From Candidatus Vogelbacteria bacterium (lineage in GTDB: Bacteria > Patescibacteriota > Minisyncoccia > Phycocordibacterales > XYD1-FULL-46-19): a DNA stretch of 64,000 nucleotides. The position numbers and the translations under genes were made by a program. Below the pieces are notes generated by a model. The model was given only the letters and a program-made list of their open reading frames with translations, did no database searches and was not told where the DNA came from. Location of the stretch: the NCBI GenBank assembly GCA_016188295.1, contig JACPIA010000004.1:42478-106477 (forward strand). Direction: 5' to 3'. How positions within the stretch are numbered: the first letter of the stretch is position 1; each line of letters begins with the position of its first letter. Below, in pieces: positions 6,212 to 18,614 of the stretch.

Positions 6212-9200
6212 GTGATTACTGTATTAAAACAATTAATACGTCAGATTGTACCTTACCTTCTCTTTTGGATTGATCCCGCTTTAATTCGGGCTGTTTGTCG
6301 TGTTGTTATTTTTATTTTAATCACTATTACGTTAGTAACTCCAAGTATTACTTTAGCCGTTTTTAATCAGCAAATAAATTATCAAGGCAAGCTAACTGAT
6401 AGCAGTAATGTGGCGGTATCTGATGGCAATTACAGTATCGTGTTTAGTTTATATACCGTTTCTAGTGGTGGCTCTAATGTCTGGACTGAAACCAAAACAG
6501 TGACGGTTACCAATGGTCTATTCAGCACAATGTTAGGTTCGGACACAGCGCTTTCATCGGTTGATTTTAATCAAACTCTTTATTTAGGAGTTAAAGTGGG
6601 TTCCGATTCCGAAATGACACCGCGCAAGACTATCGGCACTGTCCCGGCTGCCTTCGAGGCGGACAAACTCGATGGCTTAGATTCTTTAAGTTTTATCAAT
6701 TCAGCTACTACTACTTTACCTAATGTCTGGAGTATGAGCGGGTTGGGCCAAGTAGGCTCATCGAGTGCGACTACGACGGCACTGGGTAATTTAGCTGTTA
6801 TTGGCACCACCATTTTTAATGGTTTAGTCAGTGGTTATCAGCAAATTTCGGCCCCGTTTTTCACCGCCACCTCCACCACTCAAGCCTCCACTTTCCCCTT
6901 GTTCACCGGCACCACTGCTACGATTACCAATGCCACCACCACCACCCTCTTCTCTACTACTGCTTCTTCCACCAATCTCTTTACTTCCAACTTCACCTTA
7001 TGCTAATGGCGGAACCAATGCCACTTCCTTCGGTACTAATCTACTCACTTACTTTGACGGCACTCGTCTCACTTCCACTTCCAGTCCAACGGTTGGATAT
7101 GTGGTGGCGACTACGACCACCGCTACCTCAACTTTTTATGGCAATGTCCATATTATTGGCAATTTACAAACATCAGCTAGTTCGACCGCTGCCGGTCAAG
7201 CTAGTTTCACTTATGTGCCGGTTTTGGCGCATTCTTTTGGTGCTTGGGTCACCGGTGCGACCGGTGCCAATGCTCATGATTCGACGATCTATATCAATCC
7301 CGCCACCGCCGCTTCGGATACCAACTTGCTTGGTGCCGCTGTCGGTGGAGCCGTTAAATTTTTAATTGATGCCGAGGGTGATGTTTTTGCTAATTCCTTG
7401 ACTTTAGCCGGCAGTCAAACAGTCAGCACTTCCAGTATTTCCACTCTAATTGTGGAGAACAATTCTTTCCTGGGTGATGCCGCCAATAGTGACTGGACGC
7501 ATATCAAAGGCTCGGCGTGGGTGGAGAGTAATAAATCCAGTGGTGCTTCGTCCACCGCTTTGACGATTACTCAAACCGGCACAGGTAATATTTTACGCTT
7601 GGCTAGTGATTATAGTACGGCTAACCCTTTCTTTCTGGTTACGGCCGCCGGTAATGTGGGAGTTGGCACCTCTAGTCCTTACGCACCACTTGCGGTCGTC
7701 GGTCAAGCAGTGGCCGCTTATTTTACGGCAACGACCAGTGTGGCCTCAACTTTTCCTTATGCTTCGACTACGGGTTTAACTGTTTCCAGTTTGGCTTCCA
7801 CGACTAATTTGTTGATTTCTAAAATTGGTACTAGCACTCAAGCTTTTGCGGTTGGTTCGGGGTTGATCAGTAATTTAGATATGTTAGGCGGTGATCTATA
7901 TATTGGTGGTGATGCCGAGGTTGATGGCGTACTGTATGTTCAAGGTCAACTGATTTCTTCTGGCTCCTCCGAATTTACCGGCGCGATTACTTTTACTCGG
8001 GTACCGACCTTGCCTCACACTTTTACCTCGTGGGCGATTGGGACAGCTAACTCTAATGTTTCGGACGCTACGGTCTATATCAACCCCGCTACGGCTGATG
8101 CCGACACCAACTTATTTGGCTTGGCGGTGGGCGGGTCGGTCAAAACAATGATTGATGCTGAAGGTGATATTTTTGCCAATTCCTTAACTTTGTCTGGTGG
8201 ACAGACAGTCAGTACTTCAACTATCTCCACTCTAATCGTTGAGAATAATTCTTTCCTTGGTGATGCCGCTAGTAACGACTGGACTCACATCAGAGGCTCA
8301 GCGTGGGTCGAAAGCAATAAATCCAGTGGCGCTTCCACTACTGCGCTCACGATTACGCAGACTGGTACTGGTGATTTCTTTCGTATCGCCAGTGATTATA
8401 ATGATTCCGTGCCTTATTTTGTCGTCAAAAATTCCGGCAATGTCGGTATTGGCACTACCTCGCCTTACACTAAATTATCAGTCGATGGTAAGGGGGTGTT
8501 TAACCAAGATGTTAGAGCGGACTACTTCACCGCCACCTCCACCACTCAAGCCTCCACTTTCCCCTTGTTCACCGGCACCACTGCTACGATTACCAATGCC
8601 ACCACCACCACCCTCTTCTCTACTACTGCTTCTTCCACCAATCTCTTTACTTCCAACTTCACCTTATGCTAATGGCGGAACCAATGCCACTTCCTTCGGT
8701 ACTAATCTACTCACTTACTTTGACGGCACTCGTCTCACTTCCACTTCCAGTCCAACGGTTGGATATGTGGTGGCGACTAGTAGCAGAGCTTCGATCTTAC
8801 CTTATGCTTCCACTACCGCCTTGACTATTTCTGGTACCGGCTACTTTGCTGGTTCCGGCATTTGGAATTCGGCTGGTAGTGTGGGGGTGGGTACTACTTC
8901 ACCATCAGTAAAGTTAGAGGTAGTCACTGGTACGTCAGGGACGGAAAATCGGTTCTTGGTTGATCCCGCTACTACTAATGGCTCTAATCGTACTTTGCGC
9001 TTTAGTCGTTTAGGTGATGGTTGGGGGATTCAGTCTGAATACACTAACACTGGTGCTGTCCGCGATTTATCACTCCAAGCTTCTGGCGGCAATGTTGGTA
9101 TTGGTACTTCCACTCCAGGAGTAGCGCTGGATATTGTCGGGTCTTTTGGCACCAAACCTACGGCTATCAGCGGTACACTTTTGGCTTTATCTAATACTCT

Positions 9201-12114
9201 GTCCACTGCTAATAATACTTACGCTTCCCTTATTTCTGGTAATGCTGCCGAAGCTGGTATTTATCTTGGTGATCAAAATGATGTAGACATTGGCGGAATA
9301 ATTTATAACCACACTAATAATTATCTGGGTTTTCGTACTAATAATACTGCCGATCGACTGATTATTGATTCTAGTGGCAAGGTGGGGATCAATAAATCAG
9401 CTCCCGCTACCACTTTAGATGTGGTGGGGACGGCTAGTTCCACCGGTCTCCAAGTTAATGGGACAGGTAATATTCAAGGATCAGGGGATGCCAACCGTTT
9501 GACTATAGACTCGGCTTCTGGTAGTTCTGTTTTGAATATTATTAACTCCGGTCACGGCGAACATAGCGCGATTCAATTTACTCGTGAGCGATCCACTGGT
9601 CCGGGAATTGCCTCAGGCTTTATCCGCAGTCCCAGCAATACCGCTAACAACTTTGGTAAATTGGAATTGGGTGCGTTTACGTCTGGAACCTACGCGACCG
9701 CTTCTAGCTCGGTCGGCAGTCTTTTCCGGCTCAATAGCGATGCTTCAGCCTTATCCGGCGGTGCTTACGCGGAATTATTCCGTGCCAGTACCGCCGATTT
9801 AACGGAAAATTGGCTTAGTTTTAATATGCTCAATTCGGCTACGACGGAAACGACTTACTCCCAACTGCGGACGATTTTAACCGCTTCCACTACTGGCGAC
9901 GGTTCTCTGGCTTTCTTGACCAGAAAAGCCAATACCCTGACCGAAGCGATGCGGATTGATCACAACAGTCGTCTGGGAGTCGGTACTTCTACTCCTAACT
10001 GGTTATTGCAGGTGGCCGGGACGCGACCGTCGTTTGCGCTCTCGGATACGGCGGGTGGGACTAACCTTAAACACTGGCTCTTGTCTTCACAGGGAGGTAA
10101 TTTGTACATTGCTACTTCCTCGGATGCTCTGGCGACTAGCACCACGGCGGCTTTGACGGTCAGTGCTAATGGTTACTTGGGTATTGGTTCAACCACGCCC
10201 GCTTACGCTCTCTCGGTGACTGGCGGTTTGTTTGCTACTGCTTCCTCCACAATGATGAATGGGATCAATTTAACTGGCGGTTGCTTTGCTATTAGCGGAA
10301 CTTGTTTAGTCGGCGGTGGTAGCGGGACGGTCAATTCGGGAACGATTAACGGCTTGGCTTATTACACCGGATCGACAGCAGTCAGCTCGGCGGGGACTAA
10401 TCTCTTTTGGGACAATACTAACACTCGTTTGATGTTGGGGCATATTAATCGGGGAATCAATAATTTAACCGCTTCGACGACTTATATCGGTCAAGGATAT
10501 GATGGTACTGGCGCCGGTGATGCTGGTGGTAATACTTATATTTCTAATGGTGGTGATGCTACTGGTGCTGGTAATAGTGATGGTGGCGCTGGGGGGATTA
10601 TTACTATGGTTGCTGGTGGGCTCAAGACTGGGAGTGGCAGTGATGGCAATGATGGCATCGTCAATATCGGTAATAGCGCGGGCAGTAGAAATGCGATACT
10701 TAGTGTCTACGGCACTGCCACTACGACTGATGATTTGTGGGTTTTAGGTGGAGATATTAACTTGGCTCTCACGACGGCTTCGGCCCTGACGACTAATTTA
10801 TCTAATGGTAAAGATGTCGCTGGTGCTGCTGGTTTGGCCGGGACAGTTAATCTGGCAATCGGTGGTGAGGGTACTGGGGCTTCTGGTGATGGCGGTGCTG
10901 GCGGTACAGTCAATATCGCCAATGGCGGTATTGGTGATGGTGATGATGGCGGTAATGCTGGAACAGTTTATCTGGCTGTCGGTGGTGAAGGTGATACTGA
11001 TGCTGGAAATGTGGGTGGTGATGGCGGGACAGTCTTAATGGTTACAGGTGGTACAGGCAATACTAATGGCACAGCCGGTAAAGTGGGTATTGCCACTTCT
11101 ACTCCGTGGCGTACTTTGTCGGTAACCGGGTCAGTGGGATTTGATGGATTGACGACCAATACCGGTGCGGCCGCCGCTTCTCTTTGTTTATCATCTGCTA
11201 ATGAAGTAACCAAAAACACCGATAATGAGACCTGTCTGGCCTCCTCTTTGCGTTATAAAAATAATGTAACGGATTTAGCGACAGACACTGACCTCCTTGA
11301 TCAATTACGCACCGTCTCTTTTAATTATAAAAACGAATCTGATCCGCTAACCCATTACGGCCTAATCGCCGAGGAGGTGGCGGCTATTGATACGCGTCTT
11401 GTGAGTTATGATGATGAAGGTTTGGCTAATGGTATTCGCTGGTCCCACTTGACCACCCTGTTGATTAAACGAACCCAAGAGCAAGAGCAGAGGCTGGACG
11501 AATTATCTAGTTTGATTAGCGGTGGTGATATGTTAGCTAGACTGTGGACTTTAGATGAGACGACGGGAAACATCAAAGCGTTCGCGGTGCTCGATTTGAA
11601 TAATTTTGAACTTAGAAATGTCAAAGCGATCACCAGTGCTTCAGGTAAATGGAGTATTGATGATAATGGTAAATTAATTACGGAAGATATCGAGACTAAA
11701 CGTTTGTTAGTCGAAGAGGGTGTTACTACTCGCGACAAAGCCTCCGGCGATTATTATTGTATCTATGTGGAGAATGGAGTAGTTAAAACCGCCGCCGGTC
11801 GTTGTGAAGATTTGGAGGAAGAAGATAATGGGAATAATGATGACAGTGAGCCAGAGCCTGAAGAACCAGAAGAAGAACCGGAATTACCACCGACACTGGA
11901 GCCGGACGCTCCGGTGGATACTCCACCAACAGAAGAAGTACCTAACCCTGAGCCGGAACCAGAGCCCGAACCGGAACCAGACCAAGAGCCACAATCAACA
12001 CCTCTTGTCGAGGACTCGCCCCCAGATCCAATACCAGCTAATAATGAGGACTCTCCTCAAAATCCAATTCCCGAGGAGAGTCCTCAGAGTCCAGAACCCG
12101 AGCCTACTTCCTAA
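6212..12114 (+). CDS. large exported trimeric fibre/adhesin with peptidase S74 intramolecular chaperone; split in three frames (6212-7006, ~7000-8672, ~8666-12114)
   Basis: N-terminal TM/signal then 'INYQGKL...TVTNGLFSTMLG...EMTPR' domain; repeated 'GNVGIGTTSP' fibre motifs; S74 'SSLRYK...GLIAEEV...coiled coil' at ~11240-11520; acidic Pro/Glu tail. Two +1 frame breaks at the same repeated sequence. Confidence 0.75.
6860..7113 (+). repeat. 254-bp direct repeat, copy 1
   Basis: Identical by eye to 8526-8779 (offset 1666 nt); contains the frame break. Confidence 0.95.
8526..8779 (+). repeat. 254-bp direct repeat, copy 2
   Basis: Identical by eye to 6860-7113. Confidence 0.95.
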
Positions 12115-12322: not shown

Positions 12323-13822
12323 ATGCTGGCAAAATCAGCTAATTTTACTCTCACCAATAAAACCCTAACTTTAGGGTTAATTGTCGTGTTGGCTGGTGTC
12401 TTGACTTGGTCGTTAGTTTGGCCGGTCGTAGTTCAAGCGGCGGAATTGACCGCCGAGGAAAATACCTTTACTACTACGGCGCTACCACCAGTCGATGATC
12501 CTGATGATTCTCCTGATTCAGTGGAATTGGTCGATACGGAAAACACTTTTAGCACTCAAGCTGAAGGTGGCGAGCCGGCTGAGTCAACTGTTGGCGGGGA
12601 AAATTCTTTCACCACCGCTCAAGTATTGATTGTTTTGCCGGCGGTGGGTATTGAGAGATCATTCACCACTACTAACGCCAACGCCCCGTCAGCGTTTGTT
12701 ATCAGCGCTGAATCGTCATTTACTACCACGAGCACTACTAGCGGCAACGGGACTAAAGAAATTATCTCGGCTGAACAGTCATTTACTACTAGTGTTGATG
12801 GCGGTGGCGGAGGCGAGACTGAAGAGGTGGTCTCTGGCGAGTCGAGCTTTACCACCACTAATAACGGTGGAACCGCGACTAATCGAGTAATTTCGACGGA
12901 GCAGAATTTTACCACTTCATCTGGTGATAATGATGATGATACGGACGATGACACTGATAATGGTGGTGGCGGTGGTGGTCATCGACGGCGTCCGCCAGTC
13001 GAATTGCCGGCCCAATGTTCGCCGTATCTGCTTAAATTTATAAAATGGGGGGCTAATAATGATCCACTAGAGGTCCGCAAATTACAGTATTTTTTGCGCG
13101 ACTTTGAGGGTTTTACTGATATCCAAGTAACCGGTATTTATGATCGAGCTACTTACGAGGCGGTAACTATTTTCCAAAAACGTTATATTAACGATGTGCT
13201 CTCGCCGTGGGGTATCATTGACTCGACGGGTTATGTATACATTACGACCACTTTAAAAATAAATTACATCGTCTGCGGTATTGAGCGACCGATCGCTTTA
13301 GATCTCCGCGAGCGTTATCGAGTTGCTTTAGAGCGCGGTGGCGAATTTAATCTTGATGAATTAGTAGCTACTACTACCACATCAACCACTACCGCCCCGG
13401 TTAAGGCTGGATTTCTCCAAGCGGCCGCTGTGGCTTTGCTTGATTTTGCCAAGTGGCTAAATTGGTGTTACTTGTTGTCGCTGTTACTTTTAATCGTCAG
13501 TGTTATCCTGATGCTGTTGTGGCGAGAAACTAGGCGTGAGCGCGATAAGGCGCGAAGGGAAAAAGAGTTAGCTCAAGCCTTATTGACGGCGGTCACGCGT
13601 GATCATACCGATACCGCTAATGATGCGATGCCGATGTCTGAGGCTTTATTATCCTCCAGTCTGTTCCATCCCGCTCCGCTTGATGAGGAGGAACCGGAAT
13701 TGCCTCTTGAATCATCTATAGAGGCAGAACCAGTTTTGGATGAGAATTTGGATGAAGCGGTGGCCGAGTGGCAGGAGATACCGGAGTCTGAAGCCGTCGA
13801 CGACAAATTGACAAGCAACTAA
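12323..13822 (+). CDS. exported repeat protein with 8 ExSFTT strands, peptidoglycan-binding-like domain and C-terminal TM anchor
   Basis: Signal peptide ending VQA; 8 repeats; 'EVRKLQYFL...VTGIYDRATYEAVTIFQKRY' resembles PG_binding_1; TM helix, then an acidic tail. Confidence 0.75.
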   Translation: MLAKSANFTLTNKTLTLGLIVVLAGVLTWSLVWPVVVQAAELTAEENTFTTTALPPVDDPDDSPDSVELVDTENTFSTQAEGGEPAESTVGGENSFTTAQVLIVLPAVGIERSFTTTNANAPSAFVISAESSFTTTSTTSGNGTKEIISAEQSFTTSVDGGGGGETEEVVSGESSFTTTNNGGTATNRVISTEQNFTTSSGDNDDDTDDDTDNGGGGGGHRRRPPVELPAQCSPYLLKFIKWGANNDPLEVRKLQYFLRDFEGFTDIQVTGIYDRATYEAVTIFQKRYINDVLSPWGIIDSTGYVYITTTLKINYIVCGIERPIALDLRERYRVALERGGEFNLDELVATTTTSTTTAPVKAGFLQAAAVALLDFAKWLNWCYLLSLLLLIVSVILMLLWRETRRERDKARREKELAQALLTAVTRDHTDTANDAMPMSEALLSSSLFHPAPLDEEEPELPLESSIEAEPVLDENLDEAVAEWQEIPESEAVDDKLTSN

Positions 13823-13950
13823 AGGTCTGGTAGTAATCAAATCAGGAGGACTCAAAACAAAGTATTGCTTTGACTTTTGAGAGCCAACATTTCTGCACCC
13901 TGTCGGCGTGGAGATGTAGTGAGAACTTTGTAAACAGAAGGAGAGATGAG

Positions 13951-15582
13951 ATGAAGATGCGATTGGTATTACCAGCACTGGTCGCTCTGGCTAGTGTACT
14001 GGTCGGGTGTCCGGATGATCGGATTATCACTATTACTTGGAACGGTGATCCGATTACGGTTGGTCCACAATTGGGCGGCACCGGCGGTGTTATTGAGGTG
14101 AATGGTGTGACGATTGAATCGGCCGTGGCCGATTACACCTTCACTCACCCCGCTCTGGCGGGAGTGATCGGTCATATCGATTTGGCTACCGGCACTCCGT
14201 CGGTTGACGCAGTGCCGACTGATAAAAGTGGCGACGTGATCGCTATTGCCCTTATCACCATTGGCGCTTTTATCGATCTGGCGGGCGAGCAACATGTTTT
14301 CCCATATTTCGACAATAACGCCACTAGTGGCGCGGTATTCGTGCCGTTTGGTCCGGGCCTTGAGACGGCTGTTGTAAAACTGGGTCTTAGCGACAGTAGT
14401 GAGCGGCTTATTGTTTTGGTGGCCGCCGCCGAAGATCAGTTTGACAGCGATGGTGACGGTTTGCCGGATGGATGGGAAAATTGTGCTGGACTCAACGCCA
14501 ACAGTCCAACACCACCCAATGGCAACGCCAGCGATCCTGACGGCGATGGCTTAACTAACTGGGTTGAATTTATCCATTGGTCTCGTCCGATCGAATGGCT
14601 AAGTTGTAGTGATGGGCCGATTGGGCCTAATCCGCTCGATGCGGATTCGGATGATGACGGTTTCGATGATGGCGAAGAAGTGGATGAGGGGACGGATCCG
14701 ACGGATCCGGATGATTATCCCATCACGCCGCCAGACCTGGTAGTAGAATTATCATTTACTCAGACCAATCCGAGTGATTCAGCTATACGAGTAAATGAGA
14801 ATTTGATTTTTACGGCCACAGTAACTGGAGCCGTATCGGATCAGGAACTGGACTTTGACTGGTCGGTTGATGAACAGATTGTGCCATCAACGGGTGCAGT
14901 GTTGATTACTAGTTTCAATATCGCTGGCGATCACTCGGTAACGGTAACCGTCACCGATGGTCTCCAACGATCGGTTACGGACACTCGATCATTTGAGGTG
15001 ATGAATAGTGTTTCTGATAATTTTCAGGTGCACTTATTAATCAGCCCAATCAGGAGTGTCTATGTGGTTGGCGACAGGGTTCAGATTACCGCTACTCCAT
15101 CTAATGCCGTTGGTAGTGTCAGTTACCGTTGGTTCCTTAATGGGACTGAACTGACTGGATTGAATAGCTCTAATCCGATCCTGTCTTGGGTTTTCGTTAA
15201 CGCAAACCCACAAGATAAAGTCTTTAAAGTAATAGCGAAAGATGCTTCGGACTTGGTAGCTGAAGCAAATCTAGTTGTTACTGTGAGAATTAAGGTGCCG
15301 GCGACAATTAGGATCACCTCGCCGATTCCGGTGGGATCAAGTAATCCTACTTTCAATCCCGGCGAAACAATTGAGTTAAGTGCTGAGGTTGGAGGGGATA
15401 TACCACCAGATGCTTTTGTGAACTGGTTTACACCATGGGCTACTCACCCATCGGGTTTGGATACTAGTGTGGTAGTTCCTAATCTATTAGGTTCGAACTA
15501 CCTCTACGTCTTTTTGCGGTCAGCGGATAATACCATTTTGGCTTCGGATAGGGTCTGGATCCAAATTGATCCGGCTGATTAA
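13951..15582 (+). CDS. putative lipoprotein with Ca-binding Asp-rich (DxDGDG) repeats and PKD/Ig-like domains
   Basis: SD AAGGAG at 13938-43; lipobox LVG-C; DSDGDGLPDGWE, DPDGDGLTNWVE, DSDDDGFDDGEE; three Ig-like repeats. Confidence 0.7.
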   Translation: MKMRLVLPALVALASVLVGCPDDRIITITWNGDPITVGPQLGGTGGVIEVNGVTIESAVADYTFTHPALAGVIGHIDLATGTPSVDAVPTDKSGDVIAIALITIGAFIDLAGEQHVFPYFDNNATSGAVFVPFGPGLETAVVKLGLSDSSERLIVLVAAAEDQFDSDGDGLPDGWENCAGLNANSPTPPNGNASDPDGDGLTNWVEFIHWSRPIEWLSCSDGPIGPNPLDADSDDDGFDDGEEVDEGTDPTDPDDYPITPPDLVVELSFTQTNPSDSAIRVNENLIFTATVTGAVSDQELDFDWSVDEQIVPSTGAVLITSFNIAGDHSVTVTVTDGLQRSVTDTRSFEVMNSVSDNFQVHLLISPIRSVYVVGDRVQITATPSNAVGSVSYRWFLNGTELTGLNSSNPILSWVFVNANPQDKVFKVIAKDASDLVAEANLVVTVRIKVPATIRITSPIPVGSSNPTFNPGETIELSAEVGGDIPPDAFVNWFTPWATHPSGLDTSVVVPNLLGSNYLYVFLRSADNTILASDRVWIQIDPAD

Positions 15583-15602
15583 ATTGCTTCCTCACCACCT
15601 CC

Positions 15603-15668
15603 TCGACCAGCTCCGGATGGATGCTGGTCGAACCCCGGTTTTGTCTCAATGACAGGCCGGGGTTTTTC
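15603..15668 (+). terminator. hairpin plus intrinsic terminator
   Basis: tcgaccagc..gctggtcga, then aaccccggt..gccggggtt followed by a T-run. Confidence 0.65.
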
Positions 15669-15773
15669 TTGCATTATTTTGAGAGGTGTGGTAGTAATAT
15701 GGCAACTTATTGAAGGGTGTCATTATTCGTAAATAAGCCTTATTTTACAAGCTAAATTATCAAATAAATCATT

Positions 15774-16397
15774 ATGTTCAATAAATTTGCTCAAATACTT
15801 ACTTTTAGTCTAGTTTTGGCTATCGTGGTTAGTTCGGTAGTACCGGTTGGGGTTTTGGCTCAAACTGCTCTAGTTGCTAATATCACTGCGCCAGCCAACA
15901 ATAGCACTGTTACCGTTGGTCAGGTAGTTAATTTTACAGCTACAGCATCAGGCGGTACTAGCCCTTACGCTTTTGTGTGGGATTTTGGTGCCGGCTTAAC
16001 TGGTAGTATTAGTCAAAATCCAAGCCAGACTTTTACTACTGCCGGCGCACGGACTATTACTCTAGTCGTAACTGATATTAATGATGTGTCAGTTACCCAA
16101 ACCATCAATCTTACAGTTGCTGATACTAGTAATCCAACCTTAGCGATCTCTAATATCCGGATTGAGAATGTCACTACTTCGGGGGCGACTCTTAAATGGA
16201 CCACCAACTTGCCGTCCACTAGTCGGGTAATTTATGACACCCAGTCTCACTCTACTTTGGGTACTGCCCCTAATTATGATTATGCTAATTCAACCGCTAC
16301 TTCGGATACCGCCACTAAGGTTACTGAACACACTGTCACTCTTTCGGGTTTGAGTGCTAACACCCAATATTTTTTCCGAGTTATTTCCGAAGAGTAA
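15774..16397 (+). CDS. secreted PKD + Fn3-like (purple acid phosphatase N-terminal type) protein lacking the last Fn3 strand
   Basis: Signal peptide ending VLA; PKD 'VNFTATASGG..PY.F.WDFG'; Fn3 'ATLKWTT...HTVTLSGLSANTQYFFRVISEE*'. Confidence 0.8.
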   Translation: MFNKFAQILTFSLVLAIVVSSVVPVGVLAQTALVANITAPANNSTVTVGQVVNFTATASGGTSPYAFVWDFGAGLTGSISQNPSQTFTTAGARTITLVVTDINDVSVTQTINLTVADTSNPTLAISNIRIENVTTSGATLKWTTNLPSTSRVIYDTQSHSTLGTAPNYDYANSTATSDTATKVTEHTVTLSGLSANTQYFFRVISEE

Positions 16398-16417: not shown

Positions 16418-16448
16418 ACAAAACCCCTCGCCGAGCGAGGGGTTTTGT
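16418..16448. terminator. intrinsic terminator
   Basis: acaaaacccctcgc cga gcgaggggttttgt. Confidence 0.8.
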
Positions 16449-17868: not shown

Positions 17869-18614
17869 CAAAACCAAACATTGAATGTTTAGTTTTGAAA
17901 TGGAAGAACTATTTCTAATTCTTTTATTTTTGCACTACTAGTCTTTACTTCATTTTCGTATTCTTTTTGGTCTGCAAATTGACTCAAGATTAATTCGGTG
18001 TCCAGTAGATTATTCCACCGATTGGTGTCTATATAATCTTGGTAACTAGACCATGGGTATGATTTTTCTTTATTTATCCATTTAGGGTTATCACGGCAAT
18101 TACGGTGAATGTATGTTGAGGCATAAAGTAATTGATCGTTATCTTTGATGCGTACTGATTGGAATCGATTTTGGAATAAGTGACCACTTCCTTTGTATTT
18201 AGTATTAAAATATTTAGTGTAACTATTAGATATTCTCTGCATGTATTTTGATATTCCTCTATCCTCTATTTCCTCGACTAATAAATGGAAATGATTGGGC
18301 AAAAGAGCAAAAGCTTGCAATTTGACTGTCCTTCTATTAAGAATTTTATTATGTTTGTCTTTATCAAAACCAAACATTGAATGTTTGGTGTAGTGGGTAA
18401 TATGGTCACTAATATTGTTAATTGTCTCCGGTGATTGAAAGTAGAGAATCAAGAATAAAAATCTAACCCAATCTCTATTATCGAGAAAAATATCACGTTT
18501 CATTACTCCACGATTGTAGATATGGAATATCTCACTCACAACTAAGTCATCTTTGGGCATCATCATTTATTATATTATCTTTAGAATAAAAACCAAACAT
18601 TCAATGTTTGGTTT
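17869..18614 (-). mobile_element. REP-associated tyrosine transposase (RAYT/Y1 HUH) with cognate palindromes; CDS 17889-18566
   Basis: HIYNRG, PNHFHLL (HUH), YIHRN (catalytic Tyr), YPWSSY; AT-rich. Palindrome CCAAACATT(G/C)AATGTTT(G/A)G at 17869-97, 18369-89 and 18590-614. Confidence 0.88.

Follow-up and report, generated by a model that had tools for sequence, protein, structure and literature searches.

The window analysed here is a stretch of 64,000 nt from a Candidatus Vogelbacteria genome (contig JACPIA010000004.1, positions 42,478 to 106,477). The subject of this report is a pair of genes within it that appear to encode the two parts of a split Fn3 domain: a scaffold, or donor, gene (12323..13822) and an acceptor gene (15774..16397). 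Both are on the + strand, as are all the features of this locus described up to the hairpin that follows the acceptor, and a third gene lies between them. A sequence-only reading had proposed that the scaffold is an exported, anchored protein displaying eight free Fn3 G strands, on which copies of an Fn3 protein lacking its own G strand could dock.

The scaffold gene, defined by its open reading frame and domain matches, encodes 499 aa arranged as a signal peptide, eight orphan G-strand repeats, a Gly/Asp linker, a peptidoglycan (PG)-binding-like domain, a transmembrane helix and a cytoplasmic acidic tail. The signal peptide (12323..12439, approximately residues 1-39) was identified by hydropathy, with cleavage probably following V-Q-A. 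The donor array (12443..12919) matches the family consensus [VI]-S-x-E-x-[SNT]-F-T-T, with repeats starting at 12443, 12524, 12584, 12638, 12695, 12758, 12824 and 12884. Eight E-x-x-F-[TS]-T motifs are present, the Glu being at residues 46, 73, 93, 111, 130, 151, 173 and 193, whereas shuffling residues 40-200 (100,000 rounds) never gave more than three. The PG-binding-like helical domain (13016..13276) lies between the invariant Cys232 and Cys318, and is modelled with a predicted local distance difference test (pLDDT) score of 77-94; the PG_binding_1 family (PF01471) matches residues 250-288 above the Pfam cut-off. Hydrophobic stretches occur at approximately residues 16-39 and at 376-404, the latter including the transmembrane anchor (13463..13531, approximately residues 381-403) indicated by both hydropathy and the AlphaFold model. 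Given the signal-like N terminus and the helix at about 381-403, the repeats should sit outside the membrane. The reading frame coordinates, motif count, hydropathy and PF01471 match together confirm the description of an exported protein with a transmembrane and PG-domain anchor and eight motifs. A Foldseek search with the scaffold model gave no match reaching E 0.001, and an ESM Atlas search with the scaffold returned PG-binding clusters only, under 0.9.

The acceptor gene encodes a 207 aa protein consisting of a signal peptide, a PKD domain (approximately residues 34-116) and strands A to F of an Fn3 domain (16137..16394, approximately residues 122-207), in which R202 and S205 do not vary among the 49 homologues aligned. 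PKD_4 matches residues 41-115, and the Fn3 domain passes the gathering cut-offs of both PF16656 (35.6 bits, cut-off 30) and PF00041 (26.3 bits, cut-off 25). The seven strands A to G are not present in this one chain: both Fn3 profiles end early, at positions 2-67 of 84 for the fn3 model and 8-81 of 93 for Pur_ac_phosph_N, and the final element of the AlphaFold model is a strand at residues 200-206 (pLDDT 88). That the protein finishes directly after strand F, as had been claimed, is thus confirmed. Foldseek searches with the acceptor found generic tandems of immunoglobulin-like (Ig), Fn3 and PKD domains, while a sequence search of the PDB gave weak Fn3 matches only (best E 0.031). The TAA stop codon is followed by a terminator-like hairpin (16418..16448; -24.1 kcal/mol, z -5.65), a strong hairpin, although it was not among the structures reported by a simple terminator scan. 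No remnant G strand is encoded beyond the stop, there being no donor motif in any frame over the next 90 nt.

G-less Fn3 domains and donor repeats across genomes

A homologue search with the acceptor yielded 70 matches of 113-363 aa and 11 longer ones. Sixty-nine of the 70 stop one, two or three residues past the Ser that closes strand F (5, 61 and 3 proteins, respectively), the remaining match being an unrelated PKD protein without such a strand. Seven of the 11 longer matches have the same end, with extra PKD/Ig domains in front, while the other four are long and have complete Fn3 domains. The record titles of the named matches, which may be imprecise, refer to the Patescibacteria group, Ca. 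Paceibacterota, Ca. Nomurabacteria, Ca. Vogelbacteria and Ca. Saccharibacteria. In the genome sequences themselves, each of the 33 acceptor copies examined has TAA as its stop codon, and the 90 nt that follow contain no donor motif in any frame; many of these loci then have a hairpin with a T run.

Strain-specific truncation, which the sequence-only reading had named as a way in which its proposal could fail, is rejected, as every Fn3-bearing match within this size range ends within three residues of strand F and every genomic copy examined is G-less. Read-through of the stop codon, or a frameshift, that would restore the G strand is likewise rejected on the basis of the donor-free 90 nt downstream at all 33 loci, and an assembly artefact because many assemblies made independently show these ends. 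The same genomes also encode an unrelated PG-Fn3 family, which retains the G strand in four of the five copies read; the fifth (L068:4119-4748, in genome G019) ends partway into that strand, unlike its four relatives.

The consensus of the donor repeat was drawn from 178 repeats in 21 scaffolds, each carrying between four and 18 when counted with a pattern requiring the Phe. Periods below 16 residues are rare (4 of 157), which fits there being room for one domain per repeat. Across 40 aligned repeats the Glu, Phe and Thr are invariant, and strands A to F of Fn3 were absent from all 18 split-type scaffolds scanned. A profile built from the repeats only placed its top window directly past strand F in eight of ten close intact relatives, with scores of 1.2 to 25.2 bits, the exceptions being G019 and G374; eight more distant proteins had either no window after strand F by the pattern used, or a poor one. 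The repeat can accordingly be regarded as G-strand-like, as originally suggested. Within the Vogelbacteria genome itself the profile exceeded 14 bits in the scaffold alone, for seven of the eight repeats, so no donor extension was detected at that threshold on the acceptor, in the gene between the pair or elsewhere.

Genomes also exist in which the two parts form a single chain. In G012, G018 and G025 an Fn3 domain with strands A to G is followed by a Gly-rich linker and the same PG-binding domain, the G strand of the complete domain running into a linker of the scaffold type; hence three of the four genomes with an intact Fn3 domain carry the scaffold-type PG and transmembrane anchor. In the fused protein of G018 (L056:3559-6420), the domain that precedes the intact Fn3 was judged by eye also to precede the G-less Fn3 of two secreted acceptors, P0074 and P0076, which suggests that cargo is common to the fused and split forms. 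A further variation is found in genus g22 (L053, L066 and L087), where the donors of G023 and G031 have Tyr at the usual Val/Ile position and are very acidic, and the acceptors have a C-terminal Arg; it is possible that these features co-vary.

The distribution of the two genes was followed in 43 genomes of the family, which are kin and so not independent, and for which no statistic is given. Thirty contain a G-less gene, four (G012, G018, G019 and G025) a complete Fn3 belonging to that subfamily with no G-less gene found, and nine neither. For 29 of the 30, the G-less C terminus was either read directly or covered by a match up to its last residue; that of G022 was deduced from a short frame. 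A donor array, whole or in part, was found in 24 of these 30 genomes; of the other six, two (G062 and G064) were outside the scaffold search and four gave no scaffold. An order-level sample of 401 genomes gave high-scoring, full-length matches in five genomes, which belong to a single additional family; each of the five carries a G-less gene together with a donor scaffold, in one case unlinked. In G023, G061 and G217, both donor and acceptor are retained though found on different contigs or at different loci. The association of donor arrays with G-less genes, which the sequence-only reading had proposed as a check, is seen in both families. From sequence comparison it can be regarded as established that the two architectures exist, are conserved and occur together, and that there are fused intact forms.

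Modelled pairing and the proposed display scaffold

The acceptor Fn3 domain (residues 119-207) was modelled together with a 31-residue piece of the scaffold containing repeat 7 (12824..12859), alongside three controls. The complex scored 0.77, the best control 0.01; 116 of 157 solved pairs and 2 of 215 mismatched pairs attained the mark used, counts that are only roughly valid with the alignments used. Contacts agreed in at least 95% between runs, and the pLDDT of the partner was at least 65. In the modelled register the repeat runs antiparallel to strand F, with acceptor residue 204 opposite 14, 202 opposite 17 (Arg-Glu) and 199 opposite 20 (Tyr-Phe), such that the donor Glu contacts R202 and the donor Phe contacts Y199. 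The check by complex modelling that had been proposed for this locus thus favours the pairing, for one repeat and one copy of the acceptor.

A mechanism can be put forward on this basis. Both proteins would be exported, and the scaffold held in the membrane through its C-terminal helix, with the PG-binding-like domain adjacent to the membrane and, further out, eight spare Fn3 G strands on a flexible chain. Every secreted acceptor, PKD-Fn3(A-F), would take one of these strands, antiparallel to its own strand F, placing the donor Phe against Y199 and the donor Glu with R202 and so completing the beta-sandwich in trans. The outcome would be a branched brush of PKD domains on one membrane anchor, with a valency equal to the number of repeats. 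As the acceptor has no donor strand, such an assembly could not polymerise or extend as a pilus. PKD/Ig surface domains usually have a role in attachment, and for this reason the brush may serve in attachment to a host or surface. While the pairing is modelled, we infer that it takes place in vivo and that several sites are occupied at once.

Hence the system is very probably a non-polymerising, multivalent donor-strand display scaffold, with the binding as modelled; the scaffold-docking interpretation made at the outset is supported by the conserved G-less ends, the co-occurrence, the fused intact forms and the modelled pairing. A broader proposition seems to us evenly balanced: that Fn3 domains split between strands F and G constitute a general plug-and-socket, with valency adjusted through three to 18 strands and any string of Ig or PKD domains as cargo, forming a non-polymeric brush of host-attachment adhesins, and that lineages switch between the split and fused states.

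In chaperone-usher pili, such as Pap and Fim, Ig-like subunits are completed by donor-strand complementation. The present system is comparable in having a sandwich without its last (G) strand that is completed in trans, here in a model, by a peptide from another chain; it differs in having the Fn3 fold, an acceptor lacking a donor extension, no filament, and a single membrane-anchored chain that carries all the donors in tandem. No PapD-like chaperone or usher was found among the three proteins of the locus, the only part of the genome searched for them. The scaffoldin of the cellulosome has tandem docking sites for secreted partners, which bind through cohesin and dockerin. An anchored scaffold, tandem putative docking sites and secreted partners that would bind by a C-terminal module are features in common, but the docking site here is not a folded cohesin but a strand, some 12 residues long, which would complete the fold of the partner, and the cargo is composed of PKD/Ig domains rather than enzymes; neither cohesin nor dockerin gave a Pfam match in the three locus proteins at E 0.1. 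In SpyTag/SpyCatcher and other engineered split domains, division before the last beta-strand yields a short tag and a catcher. The division at this locus is of the same kind, whereas this pair is natural and Fn3-based and would be multivalent, binding again being modelled. Tag and catcher pairs of the CnaB type, joined by a Lys-Asp/Asn isopeptide bond with a catalytic Glu, have a different fold.

A further comparison is with the Pam pili, which PMC13278184 describes as polymerising donor-strand pili of Candidate Phyla Radiation bacteria, mainly Saccharimonadia and Microgenomatia; the same text also treats the chaperone-usher pili. Donor-strand assembly on the surface of Patescibacteria and a transmembrane-anchored donor (PamR) at the base are shared with the present system as modelled, but Pam pilins, as described there, hold both donor and acceptor and polymerise. 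When the Pam models were compared with the locus proteins, the only match was of NF058578 (PamR) to the PKD part of the acceptor, which reached 20 bits where the cut-off is 300. By these comparisons the system described here, though it would work like chaperone-usher complementation and is laid out like a cellulosome scaffoldin, falls outside the chaperone-usher pili, cellulosome scaffoldins and Pam pili, and no description of a split-Fn3 display system was found in a literature search whose coverage excluded most subscription journals. According to PMC10936435, PKD/Ig and PG-binding proteins are highly expressed in other Patescibacteria; a link to the present system could not be made.

Donor-strand complementation is known mainly from linear pili. 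If the proposed mechanism is correct, the same chemistry here gives a branched display with a set valency, for which two genes suffice; both have been retained in two families of uncultured Patescibacteria, and how these attach to hosts is poorly known. It would also provide a natural tag and catcher pair, with a tag of around 12 residues and many natural variants.

Alternative explanations

A number of observations weigh against display by strand donation. The complex may have passed because it resembles intact Fn3 domains, of which many have been solved, and it covers only repeat 7 and a single acceptor copy; the halves of split domains tend to pass in this manner, so the model supports fit, not binding. 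In the AlphaFold model of the lone scaffold, repeats 3-8 are placed in a beta-stack, at a pLDDT of 53-71. Some repeats are degenerate, with the Phe replaced in G319 and half motifs in L002 and L003. G003, G005, G008 and G030 have an acceptor near a contig end, on the upstream side, but no scaffold was found, and G015, G027 and G032 have donor arrays and no acceptor match, the locus being cut by a contig end in each. The relatedness of the genomes surveyed counts in the same direction. So does the outcome for the 'other G-less cargo' suggested by the sequence-only reading, none of which was found in this genome by a motif scan and protein search. Finally, in an Fn3 tree (58 rows, 87 columns), which is weak and whose bootstrap has not settled, intact domains fall among G-less ones; six changes between the two states are needed (five to seven in bootstraps), at least two being forced by strong branches, hence a single fission event is not shown. 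On these sequences, re-fusion of the split domain is possible.

The substitutions in G319 (L103:5866-7341) are Val or Ala at the position of the donor Phe. In G015, G027 and G032, which are among the nine genomes with neither a G-less nor an intact form, the contig that carries the scaffold runs on for no more than about 1.2 kb downstream of it; for G015 and G027, the contig with gatB begins in or just after murB, which the acceptor usually precedes.

The beta-stack invites the explanation that the repeats fold by themselves, as a beta-solenoid stalk with the Phe inside and Thr ladders outside, in which case their likeness to a G strand would reflect history only and the G-less Fn3 protein would act separately. 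In the AlphaFold model each repeat between residues 95 and 200 forms two short strands, and the weak fold matches include beta-helices (GlmU and an ice-binding protein), but the low pLDDT, the lack of any match at E 0.001 and a beta-helix match probability of at most 0.23 argue against it, as do periods ranging from 11 to 28 within arrays and the presence of Pro, Gly and acidic linkers. It also leaves unexplained why the neighbour always lacks that very strand and why fused forms exist, and we regard it as improbable. It is slightly less likely still that the open edge of the Fn3 domain is filled by a different partner, with the repeats as relics or decoys; that partner could be another copy of the acceptor, an unlinked protein or one on the surface of the host. 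The variability of the middle gene and the three assemblies with arrays but no detected acceptor could be accommodated in this way; no further protein in this genome exceeds the donor-profile threshold, however, and relic repeats would not keep Glu, Phe and Thr invariant.

A third explanation, to which we attach the same small weight as to a different partner, accepts the pairing but makes it transient: the scaffold would be a membrane-anchored chaperone or store releasing acceptors, as proposed for PamC and PamD. Membrane-anchored strand-donating chaperones have indeed been proposed for the Pam pili (PMC13278184). Against this, there is no final donor with which to exchange, the acceptor itself having no donor motif; a long array of strands is needless for a chaperone; and the fused forms tie cargo, Fn3 and anchor together permanently. 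The display scaffold remains the reading that we prefer.

Neighbouring genes

The gene between scaffold and acceptor (about 13951..15582, + strand) formed no part of the earlier claim. It encodes TSP3_bac repeats and PKD/Ig domains behind a lipoprotein-like signal, which we take to be such from its lipobox pattern. The slot that it occupies is variable across genomes: the lipoprotein-like cassette there has ends that are unrelated from one genome to another, and sometimes the slot contains two small genes. A promoter scan at the locus gave results at chance level only.

Upstream of the scaffold gene, the overlapping frames 6831-8672 and 8239-12114 have a duplicated stretch in common and resemble a single, very long fibre-like gene, broken by frame changes and ending at the C terminus in a Peptidase_S74 chaperone domain. 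The breaks could be a repeat assembly error or real slippage. Beyond the acceptor, an open reading frame at 17889-18566 is inserted between gatB and gap; it contains an H-x-H motif and presumably resembles a REP-associated tyrosine transposase.

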